A stretch of DNA of 64,000 nt, from contig CBDCTK010000002.1 in assembly GCA_965222225.1 (NCBI GenBank), positions 864,001-928,000 of the forward strand, given 5' to 3'. The first letter of the stretch is position 1, and each line of letters opens with the position of its first letter. Below the pieces are notes generated by a model. It saw only the letters and a list, made by a program, of their open reading frames with translations, was not told where the DNA came from and made no database searches. This stretch comes from Candidatus Poribacteria bacterium. GTDB lineage: Bacteria; Poribacteria; WGA-4E; JAJDTR01. Shown piece after piece: positions 27,742-34,893 of this stretch. A program made the translations under genes and the position numbers.

Positions 27742-29244
27742 CTATATATAGTATTTGAAATTTGGTTTACAATCGGAAACAATAGGATTCGAAATCAAAA
27801 TTTCTCCGACCGCGTCTGAAAAACCTACGGTAACAGGCTGAGAATTCCCAAGGTGGCACGCATTGTAGTTCAGTTTTGTTAAACCATAAATATCTTGGGC
27901 AACTCTTTCTATCAGAGCATCTCCGTGCTGAATATCAATGCGTAATGGCACAGGTGTTTCCCACCCGTCGTAGGTCGCAATTCGAGGTTTGAATCCACTA
28001 CCCCATAGGTATCCTGCCCGATTATTAACTCGCCAGAAGGTGCCTCTCAGAATTGGCATCTTGCCAGTGCGAAATAATCGCGGCCCGTATCGTTCCGGGC
28101 GGACCCTTACCCCAATAAGTTTAGCACTCTTGGGGCAAGCTCTTTGGTAGCCAGAAAACTCGTGATGACCAATGGTGGATCGTGAATGTAAGAAGATCTC
28201 GCGAAGTGGCTTACCACCAAGGTCCTCGTAAGTCTTTAGGACCCCACGCAAGAGGTTATATGCAGCAGTATCATTTAGATGATACTGATTAGTTTCCGAT
28301 GAATACCACGGTCCATATTGTCCAAGGAATACCACACCGTCTCCTGTATTGAGAAACATCTGGGCTGCACAACAGGCAGTTTCCTCTTCGTCTAATGTAT
28401 CATTTCGACGAAAGGCAATGCCGATGTAACAGACACCGTCGCGCGCAGTCACAAGCCTCCAAGGTTTACCGCCACATTTGTAATAAAGCGCAGTGCCAAG
28501 GTTCCACATACGGTCCGATAGCGGAGTGAGCGAGCGTCCCCCGCGCGAGTCATCGTCTTTCAAACACATTGTGGATTCCCGCACAATTTGCAAAGGGATT
28601 TCGTACTGCATGGAAAGTGCTTTCAACTGCCGCCGAAAATCGGGCGCCAATCGATACTGCTGTCGATCGAAATCATCCAAAAACTCAAGTTGCCCTGCCC
28701 TTCTCATTTGTATTGTTTGTGAAATACCAGCTTGACTAATAGGACTTGCCACGTCGGACTCTGGCCGACAATTCCGCCAAACCTCATCTGGGACTACGCA
28801 GATAGCCACGCCAATATTCTCATCAAGTTTGCTCGCCTTTTCCAACTGTTGAAGGTAAAAATTGACGGTTTTAAACGTACGCTCGTATTTATCAGGATGA
28901 CGAGAGGCCTCAATGAGTTGGGCCGCACCAATTGGATAAGACCAGACTGGCTTACTAGGCCAATGCGAGCAGAATGTAGCCTCAAACCCGGGAAATGGAG
29001 GCCAGAGCCGCAGGTTTGCTTTTCGAGCGAAGGTGGCAGGATTGTTCATAATCTCTGACCAAGCTTTGAACTTGGTGATTCCTGGGCCAGTTCCAATAAC
29101 GATGTAGGATAGTGTCCCTGGTCTTGACGGACCATCTGCGTCAAAAGGTCCGAACAGAGCTAGGCCATCACGGGGATCTATAGTCCGTTGGTGGTAGCGG
29201 AATTCCAATTCTGGTTCATCAAACACTATGATTGATTCGGTCAT
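27742..29244 (-). CDS. ago: Short prokaryotic Argonaute (MID-PIWI, catalytically inactive, SPARTA-like clade)
   Basis: Start ATG 29244 gives 500 aa. EPELEF..DPRDGLALFGP, FRRQLKA, QIVRES, YYKCGGKPWRL, CCAAQMFL..GDG.VF, LTKLNYNAC, C-terminal FKYYI. Tetrad positions are GIAF and LHSR instead of Asp. Confidence 0.95.
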   Translation of the reverse strand: MTESIIVFDEPELEFRYHQRTIDPRDGLALFGPFDADGPSRPGTLSYIVIGTGPGITKFKAWSEIMNNPATFARKANLRLWPPFPGFEATFCSHWPSKPVWSYPIGAAQLIEASRHPDKYERTFKTVNFYLQQLEKASKLDENIGVAICVVPDEVWRNCRPESDVASPISQAGISQTIQMRRAGQLEFLDDFDRQQYRLAPDFRRQLKALSMQYEIPLQIVRESTMCLKDDDSRGGRSLTPLSDRMWNLGTALYYKCGGKPWRLVTARDGVCYIGIAFRRNDTLDEEETACCAAQMFLNTGDGVVFLGQYGPWYSSETNQYHLNDTAAYNLLRGVLKTYEDLGGKPLREIFLHSRSTIGHHEFSGYQRACPKSAKLIGVRVRPERYGPRLFRTGKMPILRGTFWRVNNRAGYLWGSGFKPRIATYDGWETPVPLRIDIQHGDALIERVAQDIYGLTKLNYNACHLGNSQPVTVGFSDAVGEILISNPIVSDCKPNFKYYI

Positions 29245-29254
29245 CGTCAATATC

Positions 29255-31057
29255 TTAATCAAAATGCTCATCATCGTAGTTTCTAAGCAGTTCTGAGCGT
29301 TCGTGACTAAGCGCATCAAGAGCCGCTTCGTTAATCCCAATTGGACAATACACACGCATCGGAGTTGAATTTACGATTATTTGCGCGTCTTGCAGTCCGC
29401 CAATGTTTATCTTTTGTTCATCTTTTTCGTCAGCAAGGAACTGAACTACAGCCAATACGCGGTTAAGCCAGTCGTTATTCCACCAGTTCTTGCATAGGTG
29501 TTTTCGTCTTGAATCGATTGTACGTTTATCGTTGAAGGGGTTTCCGTCTTTGTTTGAAAGACGAACTTTTATGCGAATAAGGACCGTGAAATTATTGATA
29601 AGATCTCGGCGGACAAAAAAGGTTGGCGACAGAGAATATAAGTATTCATGGCCGGACTGATGTTTTCTTTTTCCAGTAGCAGTTATATAGGTCTTTGTAC
29701 CATCAGGTCGATTAAAGTTAAGTCGATTGTTCTCCACGAGATTCTCAGGAAAGTAGGGTTGTTCCATTTTAGGACAGTATTGCAGTTTTTTCTGATAACA
29801 CTTCACTATTAGGGCTTTTCGGATAAGCTCCGATACGAGATCAAGGGACCAAATGCTATATATATTCTTAACTGCCGACCACAGTGAACCCCCATTTTCG
29901 ATTATATTGTATTTCTCGAAAACTGATACGGGCGGCCTATGAAAACTCAGAAATGTATGTCGATCGATTTTTCGATAACTCCACTCGCGCTCAAGTTCAT
30001 TAAGATTCTCTCTTGGGATTGGATTCTGCGTTTTGAAGCAATAAATGACCTCTGGTATCTGCTGAACTTGCAAACAGTTAGAAGAAATGGTTTCTTTTTG
30101 ATCGGAGAGGATGTCTTTTTGTAAGAAGGCTTCTGCGGCAACTCGCTGGCCTTCATATAATAATCGTGGACACTCAATAGATCTCAGCTTTTTCAGTAAT
30201 TGATTTAGACCTTCACCCCAATCAAGTTTAAATGGGATGAACATCAATGTTCTCGTTACCTGGTCCAACTGTGGAACGCTTACGCCATCAACATTTAAGG
30301 GGATTAGGAAATCTTCAACACGTTCATTAGCTATGTTGAGTGCGAGTGTTCTTTGACGCATTACTTCTGGATTTTTGAGCGATGCTTGTGAATACAAACC
30401 GAGAAACCGAAAGGTTCGATTCTTAATTGCCTCGTCGACAGCCTTGGGGTAAGTCTCACCCCCTAGCAACTTGAACCGCTCACACCATACAAGGTAGCCC
30501 TCAGCGGTGAGTTTGCGAGTCAGCCAATCGGCAAGTGCTGCATCTTCAGGAACACAGCTAATGAAAATGTGATCTCGCTCTGTTGAAGCGCTGATTCTGT
30601 CTTGAATCGCAAGGAATTCTGGCGGAAAGAGTCCTGGGTGATGTTTCTTGATCTGCGGATAACTCACGTCAAGTAGGATCCGCAGACGTTCAACACCAAA
30701 GAGTTCAAATTGCCAACCGAATTTTTTGTAAATGTACGCTATCGCCTCATCTCGTTGATGCGCTGTCAATTTAGCTGTTGTGACAAAAATCAGCCGGCTA
30801 CACGCGTGGCCATGTTTATACACCTTCTCTGCATCTTCAACGAGTTTCGCTCTCCAATCTTCACGGACGCTATAGGCAAAAATCGTAGTCTCATTAGACT
30901 TATTGATATGAATTGCGTCTCGTCCTTTATCACTAAAACCACCAAGGGGTTCAATGGATTTGTAACCTTCTAGTGACATCAAGTCATGGCAAAGTCGCTC
31001 AAATTCAAAATAATCTGTGATTGCTTCAAGACAATAGATTGTGGGGTCTGCTGCCAT
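29255..31057 (-). CDS. REase(Mrr-like)-TIR-APAZ partner of short pAgo
   Basis: aa 1-145: FEFERLC..GG.SDKGRD..FAYS..DW..K. aa 161-298: TIR (HIFIS..ED..LADWL..KL..EGY.VWC..LLGGE, FLIPL, W.EGL.QLL). C-terminal APAZ ending SRRKHLCKNWWNNDWLNR. Stop lies 10 nt before the ago ATG. Confidence 0.9.
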   Translation of the reverse strand: MAADPTIYCLEAITDYFEFERLCHDLMSLEGYKSIEPLGGFSDKGRDAIHINKSNETTIFAYSVREDWRAKLVEDAEKVYKHGHACSRLIFVTTAKLTAHQRDEAIAYIYKKFGWQFELFGVERLRILLDVSYPQIKKHHPGLFPPEFLAIQDRISASTERDHIFISCVPEDAALADWLTRKLTAEGYLVWCERFKLLGGETYPKAVDEAIKNRTFRFLGLYSQASLKNPEVMRQRTLALNIANERVEDFLIPLNVDGVSVPQLDQVTRTLMFIPFKLDWGEGLNQLLKKLRSIECPRLLYEGQRVAAEAFLQKDILSDQKETISSNCLQVQQIPEVIYCFKTQNPIPRENLNELEREWSYRKIDRHTFLSFHRPPVSVFEKYNIIENGGSLWSAVKNIYSIWSLDLVSELIRKALIVKCYQKKLQYCPKMEQPYFPENLVENNRLNFNRPDGTKTYITATGKRKHQSGHEYLYSLSPTFFVRRDLINNFTVLIRIKVRLSNKDGNPFNDKRTIDSRRKHLCKNWWNNDWLNRVLAVVQFLADEKDEQKINIGGLQDAQIIVNSTPMRVYCPIGINEAALDALSHERSELLRNYDDEHFD

Positions 31058-31190: not shown

Positions 31191-32618
31191 TTAGCCCGAC
31201 ATCCCTACTAACATTACACGCTCGGCTTCCCTTTTTGCCTCTTCCACGATGGATTGACCTTCCTGTTGCAGTGCTTTTGCGTGCTTGCGGATTTCGGCGA
31301 TATGGTCGGCAATTTCGATCTGCTTCTTTGGGTCAGGCAAAATTATCCTTAATTGTTTAACTACGTTCCTTGTTATGCCGGTAACGGTGCCACCTGTTAT
31401 CTCTCTTTTGATTTGGAATTTGCCAAAACACGAGTTTAGGTAGCTCAGCAGGTAAACCGCGTTCACATTATCCCGTGGTCTCAGTAAGAAGAGATGTTCA
31501 TTTATATTCTGTCCTATATGTTCTTTACTCTGAACAATGCCGATTTTTCCTGTAGTTGCACCATCTTTGACTAAAAGCAAATCATTTAGTTGCGTTGCCG
31601 TTCTCTTGTGCAAACTATGAAACTCATGCGGGATGTATTTCGGCCTATTGACTTCTATCTCACATTGATTATTGATATGTTCTCCACCAAAACTCAATGC
31701 TCCAGATTTTATGTTTGCTACGCCACCTTTCGGACGACTTCCGCTTTCTATCATTTGCAATAAATCCCCAAGTCGCTTTACGCTACTTGTGTGTCTTAAT
31801 TGATTGTGTAGAACGTCGTAGCTATTTTGATAATAGAAAGGATCGACCCGCTTACCCGCTATCTCACCAGCATAGACTACATAGCATTTCTTCGCTTCAA
31901 TCGCTGGCATCTCAATTCCCAATTGTGCCGGAATATACTCATCAATTGAAGCCAAAAGCGAGTCTGCTTCCTGTTCTTTTTGCCGCTTCTGTGCATAGGC
32001 GGAGTCGACGGCCTCTGCAATACGATTTTGGACTTCAGGCGGTGAAAACGGCACTCTCAACGCCCGAACTTGGTATAGATCGATATTATCTCTGGCACCT
32101 CCTGACTTTATTCGATCAAAAACTGTTTGAAATGGATCTGAATTTAAAACTGTACATAACCAATGAGGATTTACAACTCTTGAAGGTCTTATGAGACACA
32201 CCGCTTGATTGATATTCGCAGATTCGAATCTATCATAGACACAACTCCTGCCAATTGATGCACCCACAATATTTAGCAAAACATCCCCTTTTTGCAATTG
32301 CGAACGCCTCATCCGTTGGTGTACGTCATCATCAATACAAACCCTTTTGCTCAACGAAAGGGATCCTGCCAATACATTTTCACTTTTTACAAACAGAATC
32401 CCTTCATCTTTGTACTCGTCTCCCTTCCATAAAGGGGTTTCTCCCTTGGTAATAGCGGTAGAAATTGCCCGAAGTCTAACTAGATCGAACTTGCTTGAAA
32501 GTATTCTTTCGCGATTTTCAATGAAAAATGGCTTATAGAAATCCACGCCAAACGTATCTTCAAGTTGGCCCTGATTGAGGATAAAAATCTGACTTTCCCA
32601 ATCAGGGCTTACGCGAAA
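31191..32618 (-). CDS. hsdS: HsdS-like specificity subunit with two TRDs; frame open back to the slippery site with no ATG upstream of the first TRD
   Basis: Two TRD/conserved-helix repeats (ITKGETP..GDVLLNIVGASIGR..PPEVQNRIA; IESGSRPKG..DLLLVKDGATTGK..PKKQIEIA). ORF-track start is GTG 32546 without an obvious SD. Confidence 0.88.
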   Translation of the reverse strand, partial: FRVSPDWESQIFILNQGQLEDTFGVDFYKPFFIENRERILSSKFDLVRLRAISTAITKGETPLWKGDEYKDEGILFVKSENVLAGSLSLSKRVCIDDDVHQRMRRSQLQKGDVLLNIVGASIGRSCVYDRFESANINQAVCLIRPSRVVNPHWLCTVLNSDPFQTVFDRIKSGGARDNIDLYQVRALRVPFSPPEVQNRIAEAVDSAYAQKRQKEQEADSLLASIDEYIPAQLGIEMPAIEAKKCYVVYAGEIAGKRVDPFYYQNSYDVLHNQLRHTSSVKRLGDLLQMIESGSRPKGGVANIKSGALSFGGEHINNQCEIEVNRPKYIPHEFHSLHKRTATQLNDLLLVKDGATTGKIGIVQSKEHIGQNINEHLFLLRPRDNVNAVYLLSYLNSCFGKFQIKREITGGTVTGITRNVVKQLRIILPDPKKQIEIADHIAEIRKHAKALQQEGQSIVEEAKREAERVMLVGMSG

Positions 32619-32621
32619 AAA
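32568..32621 (-). promoter_or_regulatory. Candidate -1 programmed ribosomal frameshift signal
   Basis: Minus strand: T_TTT_TTC (32621-32615), spacer GCGTAA (contains the 0-frame stop), then GCCCTGATTG...CAATCAGGGC perfect 10-bp stem (32608-32599 with 32577-32568). The -1 frame is the hsdS frame. Confidence 0.75.
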
Positions 32622-34893
32622 CCTGGGTCTTCATGTGAGAACCTGCGGTATTCATTGTAGATTGTGTGGAGATCGTTAATCGGGTCCTTTCGGCCCGTTG
32701 CATCATAGCCGATACGCTCGGCAATTGCCATAAAGATTGGATTGTTGGCGTTTTCCTTAATCCATTTACGGATGTCTTCAGCGTTCTTGTCCGCCAACTC
32801 CTCTTTAACCACGTCAATCTTCTCCTTGTATTTCGCTTTAACCTCGCGCTCCCACTCCGAATCGGCAGCGGCTTTGAATGCCTCGCGATATTCCTTCTCA
32901 AGAGTGCCAAGGTCGGCCGTATGTTCTCTCAGTTGAGCGCGCGCTGTCTTCAATTCATATGGCCCAACTTCCCGAACGGTTTGGGAGGTTTCGTCGCGAA
33001 CGAAACGGCTCCGCAGTGATTGAACCTTTTTCGCCGGTTCTTTGCCAAGTTTCTGGTTCAACTCGTCAATAAGATCCAAGATTGCCCGAAATCTTGGTTC
33101 AAACTGTTCTGTGGCTGCGGCTTGTGGTCGACATCCGCGATTGAGTACCAATTTCCGCTCATCCTCAAGTTCCCGGAACCGCCGCGCATATAGTGCTTCA
33201 TTCCTTCCTTTAACCTTATCGATGTTCGCTTGATAAAGACCATACTCCTCTTGTGAAAATTTACGCAAAAACAGTATTGATGGCTTCACCCCTGCGCCGT
33301 AGTGCGAAAAAGCGGTTTGAGGGAGTGAGACGACCGCAAGGATTTGGAAATGTCCTTCGATGTAATCCCTTACGTACTGCAACGAGGAGTTGGTCAGAAT
33401 TCCGTCGGGCAAAATGATTGCGAGTGTTCCTGTCTTCCATTTGAGAAAATCAAAACATCGTTCCAGAAACAGAACCTCTGTTTTTTGAGAAGCGTATTTC
33501 CTCCCAAGTTCATAATCAGCTAGATATGGCGATTCGTCCTTCTTTACGACCGCCCCGAACGGTGGATTGGTGAGAATTACGTCAAATCTCTCTTTATTAA
33601 AACCACTATGCTGGTTGTTGAGGTCATCGAAATTCACCAGCCCGTCGCTACCGATGACATTGCTGTGCCCGTCATCATGGATAATCAAATTCATCTTGGC
33701 GACGCGGGCAATAGAATCGTTGACCTCAATCCCGAAAAGCCGTTTTCGGCGAAATCGTGCCAGTGGGTATAATGTTCTCTGCTATCTTCGGAGTAGTATT
33801 CAGATGCCTCTGTCCGAATGTAATCCATCGCGTGTAACAGAAAGCCACCCGAACCACACGCTGGGTCGAGAATTCTATCTTCATGGTGCGGTGTAACCAT
33901 CTTGACCATGAACTCAACGACCTCGCGCGGCGTGAAATATTGCCCCATATCACCCCTGAAATAGTTTCCGAGAAATCGCTCGAAGGCAATCCCCTTCACG
34001 TCCAAGTCAGTCCGATTCAAATCGATTCCTTGTAGGTGATTCACAACCGAAAATAATCTAGCATCATCAACCCGAATATCCTCTGTAAAGACCTCTGGGT
34101 CTTGTGCTTTGGCTTCCTGATACAATCTGTTGATTCGGTGCGCAACCGATTCAGGGCGTTCACGCGTTTTGATTTGAAAATCGTAGGGCTCGCCCCTCCG
34201 TCTAGCCTTTTTTTCATCCCGAACTTTGACAAAAAGAATTTTGGAGAGTTCATTAAACGCGACCGTCGGTTCAAGCCTGCCCCCCTGCCAAAGTGTATCA
34301 TGGCATTTTTCAAGGGCACGGATGAGATCGTCTCTTTCAACGACCTGTAAATCCCAATCGGGGTCACCTGTCCGATATCGCCATTCGGAGACTGAACCGT
34401 ATCGAACCGGAACATCTGCGATGATGTTTTGGACGCGTTCAAGCGGTTGATGACCTTTAACCTCAAAGAAGCGCCTAGTATTTCCCGCAACAACAGCCGC
34501 GTAGTCTCCGGATAAAGAGTTACAATTCCCGAAAACCTGTTCAATTGCCTGATTGAATTCTGCTTCAGAAATCCTGTCTTTTTTGCATTCTACTACGATG
34601 AAAGGAGTTAGCCGGTCATCGTCCATGAAGACGACCAGATCAGCCGAATCACTTGGTGTCCGACGCGGGACAGTAACCTCCAAGCCCATCGCGTTTTCCG
34701 AATACTGATATCGCTCAATTAACTCGACATAATATCTTGCCCGGACTTGTTCTTCAGGATTGGCAAATCTGTATCTTTTGTTTTGAGCGACATAACGGAT
34801 TGTTGTCCCTTCATTACGGATTGTTGTCCCTTCATTAAGGAACTGGATGTAGCCTTTCCGCTCTCCGATCTGAACAAAATCAATCTGTTTCAT
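32609..34893 (-). CDS. Fused restriction endonuclease (HsdR_N-like) + N6-adenine methyltransferase (type IIB/IIG-like), split by a 1-nt frameshift near 33745
   Basis: PEEQVR..ADLVVF..VECKK nuclease motif, GQYFTPRE, LDPACGSGGFL, then GIEVN..VAKMNLIIHDDG, LTNPPFG, ILPDGIL. One extra A in the A4 run at 33743-33746 joins both ORFs into 761 aa. Confidence 0.9.
34795..34836. repeat. 21-bp in-frame tandem duplication
   Basis: ACGGATTGTTGTCCCTTCATT twice, encoding NEGTTIR-NEGTTIR on the minus strand. Confidence 0.95.

Follow-up and report, generated by a model that had tools for sequence, protein, structure and literature searches.

A putative programmed -1 ribosomal frameshift site between the RM and specificity frames of a type IIB-like restriction-modification family

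We describe here a restriction-modification locus in a 64,000-nt stretch of DNA from a Candidatus Poribacteria bacterium (the window), in which the gene of a combined restriction and modification subunit (RM), the reading frame of a specificity subunit (S) with two target recognition domains (TRDs), and the junction between them all lie on the minus strand. Judged from its sequence, the locus very likely represents a BsaXI/BcgI-like (type IIB-like) enzyme whose RM and two-TRD S are joined by a site of programmed -1 ribosomal frameshifting (PRF). The junction carries a slippery heptamer and a hairpin, both are conserved among homologous loci, the hairpin covaries, and the S frame has no start codon of its own. 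According to the mechanism proposed here, a ribosome reading UUU-UUC at the end of RM would meet a GC-rich hairpin 6 nt downstream, and some ribosomes would move back one base on U_UUU_UUC, with both tRNA-Phe re-pairing with UUU-UUU. The slipped ribosomes would go on into S and produce an RM-S fusion (...FF-R-V-S-P-D...), and the unslipped ones would read one more codon, reach the stop, and release free RM. RM and RM-S together would supply two RM modules and two TRDs, which is the (RM)2S make-up of type IIB enzymes. We infer the slip, its efficiency, and the (RM)(RM-S) assembly from the comparisons reported below. These also suggest that the locus probably belongs to a cross-phylum type IIB-like family in which -1 frameshifting would act as a stoichiometry device, with signals gained or lost together. 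Its members would interchange among three architectures: an independent S that has a start codon, an S with two TRDs reached by frameshifting, and half an S fused in frame to RM, a form that would dimerize.

RESULTS

The RM-S junction carries a candidate frameshift signal

Read directly on the minus strand, the RM frame ends in GGT TTT TTC GCG TAA, and the TTTTTTC that had been predicted as an X_XXY_YYZ heptamer at this end is indeed present and in phase (Table 1). The predicted hairpin was likewise found in the window. It consists of a perfect 10-bp stem (GCCCTGATTG paired with CAATCAGGGC), which begins exactly 6 nt past the heptamer and is lengthened by three pairs, GGA/TCC, beyond one bulged base. 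A heptamer followed by a 6-nt spacer and a hairpin is the standard arrangement for -1 PRF. The junction (91 nt) folded with -31.8 kcal/mol and z = -3.24 (RNAfold, 200 dinucleotide shuffles), and 2 shuffles were equally stable. The frameshift signal of the window strain is intact, and the arrangement at the junction is, from sequence comparison, beyond chance, because it recurs in homologous loci. A role of the hairpin as a terminator was rejected by eye, since its 3' arm is not followed by a U run. As for the heptamer itself, H_HH.U_UU.Y heptamers are among the most efficient in Escherichia coli, with U_UU.C as the second-best tetramer (Sharma et al., PMC4066793; this and the other papers given by PMC number are cited from excerpts).

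The S frame lies in -1 relative to RM, and its open stretch begins 9 nt ahead of the T run, in agreement with the original prediction, which had described it as an open hsdS frame without an ATG before the first TRD. Its first ATG, GTG, or TTG is the GTG at 32546-32544, located 75 nt from where the T run starts and inside the conserved beginning of TRD1. Two TRDs were recognized in S, with matches to Methylase_S (Pfam) in two stretches and to the PADLOC model Specificity_I in two stretches. The junction therefore combines, as expected for -1 PRF, an in-phase heptamer, a covarying structure 5 to 9 nt downstream, and a long, conserved -1 open reading frame (ORF) that lacks a start codon.

The junction is conserved among homologous loci of the same order

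A protein-defined set of homologous loci was obtained by comparing the 361-aa part of RM with 159 genomes of the order, which gave 40 places in 36 genomes at E <= 1e-60 and 61 to 72% identity. The junction was readable in 39 of these places, the exception being L051, which has no junction. In 35 of the 39 loci, S lies in -1 behind an in-phase heptamer (T_TTT_TTC in 34 and T_TTT_TTT in 1). In all 35, the 0-frame RM stop stands exactly one codon after the heptamer, 10 nt from its start, and the S frame is closed 0 to 51 nt upstream of the T run. The T run of L020 is immediately preceded by a TGA, which confines the frame change in that locus to 10 nt. The first canonical start codon of S is not conserved in these 35 loci and is scattered from +9 to +267 nt. 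The S frame after the T run is 450 to 482 codons long in 27 of them. It runs off the contig end in L013, L028, and L040 (still 454 codons in L040), is frameshifted in L023 and L027, and is interrupted by an IS3-like gene (orfA) in L041. Decay of the RM/S family appears to be frequent in Poribacteria, affecting S in the last three loci and RM in L047 (frameshifted) and L050 (truncated).

The remaining 4 of the 39 loci are in frame. With T7, L043 and L047 read ..DFFRVSPD.., which matches the predicted trans-frame junction exactly, and L017 has T8GGA and reads ..DFFWISPD.. in a 1,212-aa frame. In L044, a deletion joins ..DFFG to the inter-TRD linker, and RM is thereby fused directly to the half of S with the second TRD in a 1,000-aa open frame (from 3131 onward). 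L043 additionally carries a truncation, by which S stops after one TRD (1,036-aa open frame, from 3083 onward), and in L047 it is RM itself that is frameshifted. Because these natural in-frame alleles read the same linker, their sequences indicate that RM-S fused at precisely this junction is viable. Over the 39 loci, the tract is T6 in 35 (including L044), T7 in 3 (in one by substitution, with the -1 phase kept), and T8 in 1. We rejected the possibility that errors of sequencing or assembly explain the T run, given T6 in 35 of 39 loci, in many assemblies, and in four sequencing runs.

Frameshift-type junctions occur in other phyla and in metagenomes

When genome contigs were searched with an aligned C-terminal half of RM, 65 loci were returned, of which the 30 outside the Poribacteria clade (L086 to L115) were read. 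As seen in 10 of these, a heptamer, one codon, a stop, and a GC-rich hairpin are followed in -1 by a two-TRD S without a start codon, 417 to 493 codons long in all 10. The metagenome-assembled genomes (MAGs) in question carry the names Phycisphaerales, Sedimentisphaerales, Verrucomicrobiia, Dehalococcoidia, Armatimonadota, Chloroflexi, Terriglobia, and Ignavibacteriales. In 11 of the 30 loci, judged from the reading frames, S has its own start codon; 7 are in-frame fusions with only about 190 to 245 residues after RM, which corresponds to one TRD; and L087 has no S. L086, from a Chlorobiota MAG, has T7 followed by CG TGA with S in +1. Near its junction (1480-1510), T6 would give an in-frame fusion, and an indel in a fused gene, a low-coverage error, or a +1 event could each account for this locus. 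In a metagenome scan, 543 relatives were found and 80 kept. Among the best 26 of these, 13 had the heptamer with S in -1, about 7 had an own start, 4 were fusions, and 2 were unclear. In the other 54 (30 to 43% identity), which were read separately, no in-phase heptamer was found, and nearly all have ATG, GTG, or TTG at the stop. Since these more distant relatives lack the heptamer and have a start at the stop, the sequences indicate that heptamer, hairpin, and missing start go together and mark one part of the RM/S family, and are no general property of M-S (methyltransferase-specificity) junctions. L102 fits this pattern of joint loss, its heptamer being imperfect, its hairpin absent (z = -1.1), and its stop overlapped by an ATG. 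Taken together, conservation of the heptamer, which had been proposed as a check, was found in the order (T_TTT_TTC in 34 of 39 loci, plus the one T_TTT_TTT), in 10 of the 30 loci from other genomes, and among metagenome loci in 13 of 26. Across all heptamer-type loci the -1 phase of S is kept and no start codon is conserved.

The heptamers of the 10 genome loci are T_TTT_TTC or T_TTT_TTT, apart from A_AAT_TTT in L088 and the imperfect A_TTT_TTC in L102. U_UUU_UUC, U_UUU_UUU, and A_AAU_UUU all fall within the class H_HH.U_UU.Y. These variants bear on transcriptional slippage, which strikes us as very improbable and in which RNA polymerase would add one U on U6, so that some mRNAs would encode an in-frame RM-S. 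Slippage of this kind would give an identical product (..FFRVSPD..), and T7 is found in a few members. Six T, however, is below the run lengths known for efficient slippage; a hairpin at the PRF spacing and a strict heptamer phase are not required for slippage by the polymerase; and A_AAU_UUU in L088 contains a U run of only 4 nt. Proneness to transcriptional slippage has been noted for UUUUUUU (PMC4066793).

A tree of 64 RM sequences (FastTree, local support only, midpoint root) placed the frameshift-type loci in one group of 54 rows with a support of 98. In this tree, the in-frame L017, L043, and L044 are nested singly inside the Poribacteria clade, and the high-GC forms with an own start lie nested within the multi-phylum clade. 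Of the 10 in-frame fusions found in genome loci, 8 have one TRD, the exceptions being L017 and the broken L047. A two-TRD S linked by frameshifting, set against one TRD in the in-frame fusions, fits an assembly of 2 RM and 2 TRDs, since a dimer of one-TRD fusions would give the same 2:2. The 2:1 ratio of RM to S on which the original prediction was built gains support from these TRD counts and from the EcoKI fusion, which needs free HsdM in vitro (PMC3510504).

In five loci of the multi-phylum clade (L091, L094, L096, L099, and L100), a Shine-Dalgarno (SD)-like AAGGA or AGGAGGA was observed 9 nt upstream of the heptamer (about 16 to 10 nt), within conserved K-D or E-D codons; by analogy with dnaX, this element may act as an upstream stimulator. 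The relatives that tblastn detected in plasmid sequences were all below 37% identity, and the frameshift-type clade had no cultivated carrier among them. Among viral contigs, none of 48 pattern matches encodes a relative.

The hairpin covaries and its synonymous sites are conserved

The stem starts at +13 in 41 of the 45 heptamer-type loci tested (35 of 35 in the order and 6 of 10 elsewhere). Covariation was evaluated on an alignment of 57 heptamer-type junctions with 11 pairs, and on a smaller set of 44 rows, which gave the same picture. Standard pairs occupied 87.5% of the 616 cells, compared with 38 to 50% when the 3' partner was slid by 1 to 3 columns. Both sides had changed in 47 cells, distributed over 6 pairs. 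The basal pair, for instance, is G-C in 45 rows, C-G in 7, and A-U in 1, and its C-G variant results from a Ser-to-Thr change paired with a synonymous GGC-to-GGG change. The covariation score was 0.284, compared with 0.184 for shuffled alignments, and none of 500 shuffles reached it. The compensatory stem changes that had been proposed for checking were thus found. When the sequences were folded singly, at least 5 of the 6 basal pairs formed in 52 of the 57 rows, with a median z of -3.76 (mononucleotide shuffles). The window has a compensated pair of its own, AUUG/CAAU in place of AUAG/CUAU in the family; L048, which has the same first TRD as the window, shows an A·A mismatch at this position. 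In L089 and L092, two loci with an own start, S begins with ..MKCF.V.. and has ..YDDI.. or ..CDDR.. in place of the ..RRGE.. of the frameshift type; because these loci differ there, the protein does not require the codons of the 3' arm. In the multi-phylum clade (L095, L096, L100, and L135), an inner helix, GGCAAGG / CTTTGCC, was seen by eye inside a long loop (alignment columns 28-34 and 42-48), with a G-U to A-U change in L096, giving a two- or three-part hairpin of about 47 nt.

Third-position conservation was measured over 33 Poribacteria loci. It was 0.66 in the last 39 RM codons, 0.92 from heptamer to stop, 0.88 in the 5' arm, 0.83 in the loop, 0.955 in the 3' arm, and 0.50 in the next 22 S codons after the stem. 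Synonymous sites across the stem are therefore unusually conserved. GAT-TTT-TTC is fixed, despite ratios of 799:591 for TTT:TTC and 996:670 for GAT:GAC elsewhere in these genes.

The S-frame codon that lies over the RM stop bears on translational coupling, which we consider quite unlikely. In this scenario, ribosomes would terminate at the RM stop and re-initiate at an overlapping codon, the hairpin would only block independent initiation, and S would be a free protein. The codon is indeed ATG (an ATGA overlap) in 5 of the 57 rows, GTG in 1, and CTG in 2, and in those rows free S could be made by ordinary coupling; moreover, in ordinary relatives the two frames overlap by ATGA-type sequences, likewise in -1, and hsdM and hsdS of EcoKI are translationally coupled (PMC3510504). 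The other 49 rows, however, have GTA, CTA, ATA, or TTA, which are not usual start codons. Coupling would also leave unexplained the GAT/CCT-TTT-TTC fixed at synonymous sites, the restriction of heptamer variants to a slippery class with the stop exactly one codon on, and the joint loss of heptamer and hairpin in L102, the locus in which an ATG is present.

The T run in sequencing runs

The T run was examined in Logan contigs of 4 runs from 3 studies (X1, X3, X4, and X5), a form of data in which rare variants are hidden. The contig from X1 (depth about 100, probably the source sample) is identical to the window over 32300-34000, including T6 and a 1-nt deletion in RM. The contigs from X3, X4, and X5, which come from two other studies and are about 99% identical, have one extra base at 33742/33743, which restores the RM frame. 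X3 and X5 have yet another extra base behind 33274, by which the frame would be broken and a premature stop reached, and the X4 contig carries neither change. RM thus appears inactivated in different ways among near-identical strains, at 33742-33743 in the window and X1 and at 33274 in X3 and X5. The T run itself has no indel in the contigs of any of the 4 runs and is T6 throughout, so that the T7 which would have pointed to a simple fused gene was not obtained; the contig data may be compatible with a minority T7 population.

These observations speak to a switch at the DNA level, to which we give little credence, in which the locus would be a fused RM-S gene whose T run toggles in and out of frame or gathers inactivating indels. 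Three of the 39 order-level loci are in frame by T-run indels (L043 and L047 with T7, L017 with T8GGA), L086 is out of frame with T7, and several loci of the family have decayed. Six T, however, is shorter than typical phase-variable tracts, and the length polymorphism among close relatives or within a population that marks such tracts was not seen, with T6 in 4 of 4 runs, although contigs could hide rare variants. In addition, 58 loci (35 of the 39 in the order and all 23 other heptamer-type loci) share one "off" state, most of them with a full-length two-TRD S, and T5 or other lengths were not seen. The two T7 alleles, L047 and L043, have a broken RM and a truncated S, respectively, and a switch would give no role to a covarying hairpin at 6 nt or to a stop that always stands at one position. 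Phase variation through homopolymer tracts is well documented for restriction-modification genes, for example type III mod (PMC3711429).

The RM gene of the window is split by a deletion

The original prediction had taken RM as one 761-aa product and its fusion to S as one of about 1,234 aa. In the window, however, RM is split into ORFs of 400 and 361 aa, in different frames, by a 1-nt deletion (GAAAA-CGG in place of GAAAAGCGG in six homologues). Because of this deletion, those sizes do not apply to the window allele, from which neither product could be made as written. Intact homologues have a single RM open frame of 754 to 808 aa. The 400-aa ORF contains a PD-(D/E)xK-type HSDR_N_2 domain, in which D...ExK is readable as ..ADLVVF..VVECKK.., followed by the start of an N6-adenine methyltransferase with motif I DPACGSGGF, where the frameshift ends it. 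The 361-aa ORF, which is 63 to 72% identical to its homologues, continues with methyltransferase motif IV (NPPFG), a helical insert, and the C terminus ..EDPGFFA before the stop. The fusion of a PD-(D/E)xK nuclease to an N6-adenine methyltransferase that characterizes type IIB enzymes is thus found here (HSDR_N_2 and N6_Mtase), in a frame that is broken in the window. The closest solved structure to RM is RM.BsaXI (PDB search, E = 8e-37), and the PADLOC label for the RM family is MTase_I. No separate hsdR-like ORF is among the ORFs listed around the locus, where no dedicated search was made. The restriction-modification system is probably inactive in the window strain, because RM is broken by its own deletion.

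Table 1. Coordinates of the features of the RM/S locus in the window
Feature	Position	Strand	Remarks
Slippery heptamer U_UUU_UUC	32615..32621	-	In phase with RM frame; first T is third base of GGT
Spacer, 6 nt	32609..32614	-	GCG codon 32614-32612 and RM stop TAA 32611-32609
Stem-loop	32568..32608	-	5' arm 32608-32599, 3' arm 32577-32568, extension 32598-32596 / 32581-32579; from fold and covariation
S (specificity) frame	31191..32621	-	-1 relative to RM; 474 sense codons after T run; two TRDs; Methylase_S 1.5e-12; PADLOC Specificity_I
RM N-terminal part, 400-aa ORF	33691..34893	-	HSDR_N_2 (1.2e-12) and N6_Mtase profile positions 4-72
RM C-terminal part, 361-aa ORF	32609..33694	-	N6_Mtase profile positions 95-236; Eco57I 1.8e-10
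1-nt deletion splitting RM	between 33743 and 33742	-	Comparison with six homologues

A short Argonaute system lies downstream of S

A short prokaryotic Argonaute (pAgo) system was observed directly downstream of S on the minus strand (27742-31057). It comprises a 600-aa protein with Mrr-like restriction endonuclease (REase), TIR, and APAZ parts (PADLOC Aga_REase-TIR-PNTD1-PNTD2, 2.7e-83; Pfam TIR_2 and Mrr_cat) and a short pAgo of roughly 500 aa (PADLOC pAgo_I, 2.3e-170; no Pfam match). In L014, which belongs to another genus, the ORF after S likewise has an N terminus resembling the REase-TIR protein, and the RM/S and short Argonaute systems may therefore travel together.

DISCUSSION

The computational checks that had been proposed for this junction were each run, and each came out in favor of a programmed frameshift. 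Several points nevertheless weigh against it. The support is comparative throughout, and nearly all of the genomes are metagenome-assembled or single-cell assemblies. RM of the window is itself broken, as are RM in L047 and L050 and S in L023, L027, and L041. With regard to the hairpin, the number of pairs with a change on both sides is a weak measure, reached by 150 of 500 shuffles with 44 rows and 280 of 500 with 57 rows, and so is the number of further pair types, reached by 5 and 25 of 500, respectively; two of the five covariation measures are not above the shuffles, and the relatedness of the sequences inflates all covariation scores. The stem is partly coding for conserved residues (S-P ... 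R-G), the basal pairs are absent from the single-sequence fold in 5 of the 57 rows, and the in-frame alleles have kept the hairpin although they do not need it. The T-run indels of the three in-frame loci and the start codons over the RM stop described above also count here, as does L086, whose +1 arrangement -1 slippage cannot explain.

In full-text literature searches, with supplementary tables outside their scope, we found no report of ribosomal frameshifting that joins M or RM to S or that occurs in any restriction-modification system. The first 300,000 characters of the 2016 review by Atkins (PMC5009743) contain none of four restriction or methyltransferase terms looked for, and in the excerpted main text of the GeneTack paper only phase variation of type III methyltransferases is mentioned (PMC3711429). 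The mechanism and the enzyme class are both known, and their combination appears to be new. If true, this would be, as far as the literature searches show, the first case of programmed frameshifting in a gene for restriction-modification or another anti-phage defence. It would also be one more conserved cellular -1 frameshift, spanning many phyla, and a natural counterpart to the engineered M-S fusion that depends on added free M. To our knowledge, conserved bacterial -1 frameshifts outside phages and insertion sequences are few, namely, dnaX and a handful of others. For annotation, an S that is taken to begin at its first internal GTG or TTG (32546 in the window) would lose an N-terminal TRD motif, and the RM-S product would be missed altogether, with consequences for defence-system catalogues and REBASE-type predictions in sponge symbionts and many environmental lineages. 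The association of two TRDs with frameshifting and of one TRD with in-frame fusion provides a testable rule linking recoding to complex stoichiometry, and the 80-nt cassette is compact and could serve as a ratio-setting part.

Among known systems, dnaX of E. coli (tau/gamma) uses a -1 frameshift on A_AAA_AAG with a hairpin about 6 nt downstream, and its shorter protein is the frameshift product. The RM/S junction resembles it in the heptamer with a hairpin at about this distance and in the two products per mRNA that would be made in a set ratio for a multi-subunit machine. In contrast to dnaX, the frameshift product here would be the longer fusion, the heptamer is U_UUU_UUC, and an upstream SD-like element is only hinted at by the AAGGA 9 nt upstream in the multi-phylum clade. 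The OrfA/OrfAB pairs of the IS3 family (IS911 and IS3) are similar in that -1 PRF fuses overlapping ORFs, the downstream one of which has no start of its own, and U_UU.U_UU.C is among the heptamers found in IS3-type elements (PMC4066793). Those genes, however, belong to mobile elements, whereas here the catalytic and DNA-recognition modules of a cellular defence enzyme would be joined.

Homopolymer phase variation is found in the polyG type IIG genes of Campylobacter. As in phase-variable restriction-modification genes such as type III mod (PMC3711429), a homopolymer run stands here between two reading frames, but it is short and fixed at 6 and comes with a heptamer locked in phase, a stop at a fixed position, and a hairpin that covaries.

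The engineered EcoKI fusion is a further parallel. Roberts et al. (2012) fused HsdM to HsdS by removing the natural frame change and named the product "Type IMS" (PMC3510504). The fusion was active in vivo, whereas its DNA cleavage in vitro depended on added free HsdM, from which they concluded that the enzyme consists of one M and one M-S fusion (PMC3510504). The source of free M in vivo was unclear, and proteolysis or stalling was suggested (PMC3510504). As in that fusion, M would stand on the N terminus of a two-TRD S, and M plus M-S is the assembly proposed here. The EcoKI fusion, however, was obtained by mutagenesis and has HsdR as a separate subunit, whereas in the present family frameshifting would supply both forms and the M partner carries the nuclease domain.

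Finally, the family shares with BsaXI and BcgI an RM in which a gamma-type N6-adenine methyltransferase accompanies an N-terminal PD-(D/E)xK domain, together with a two-TRD S. BsaXI is an (RM)2S heterotrimer, and in the study of this enzyme its S reading frame was expressed on its own as a separate protein (PMC11997821). Unlike in BsaXI, the S frame described here has no start codon and would be reached through the RM frame.

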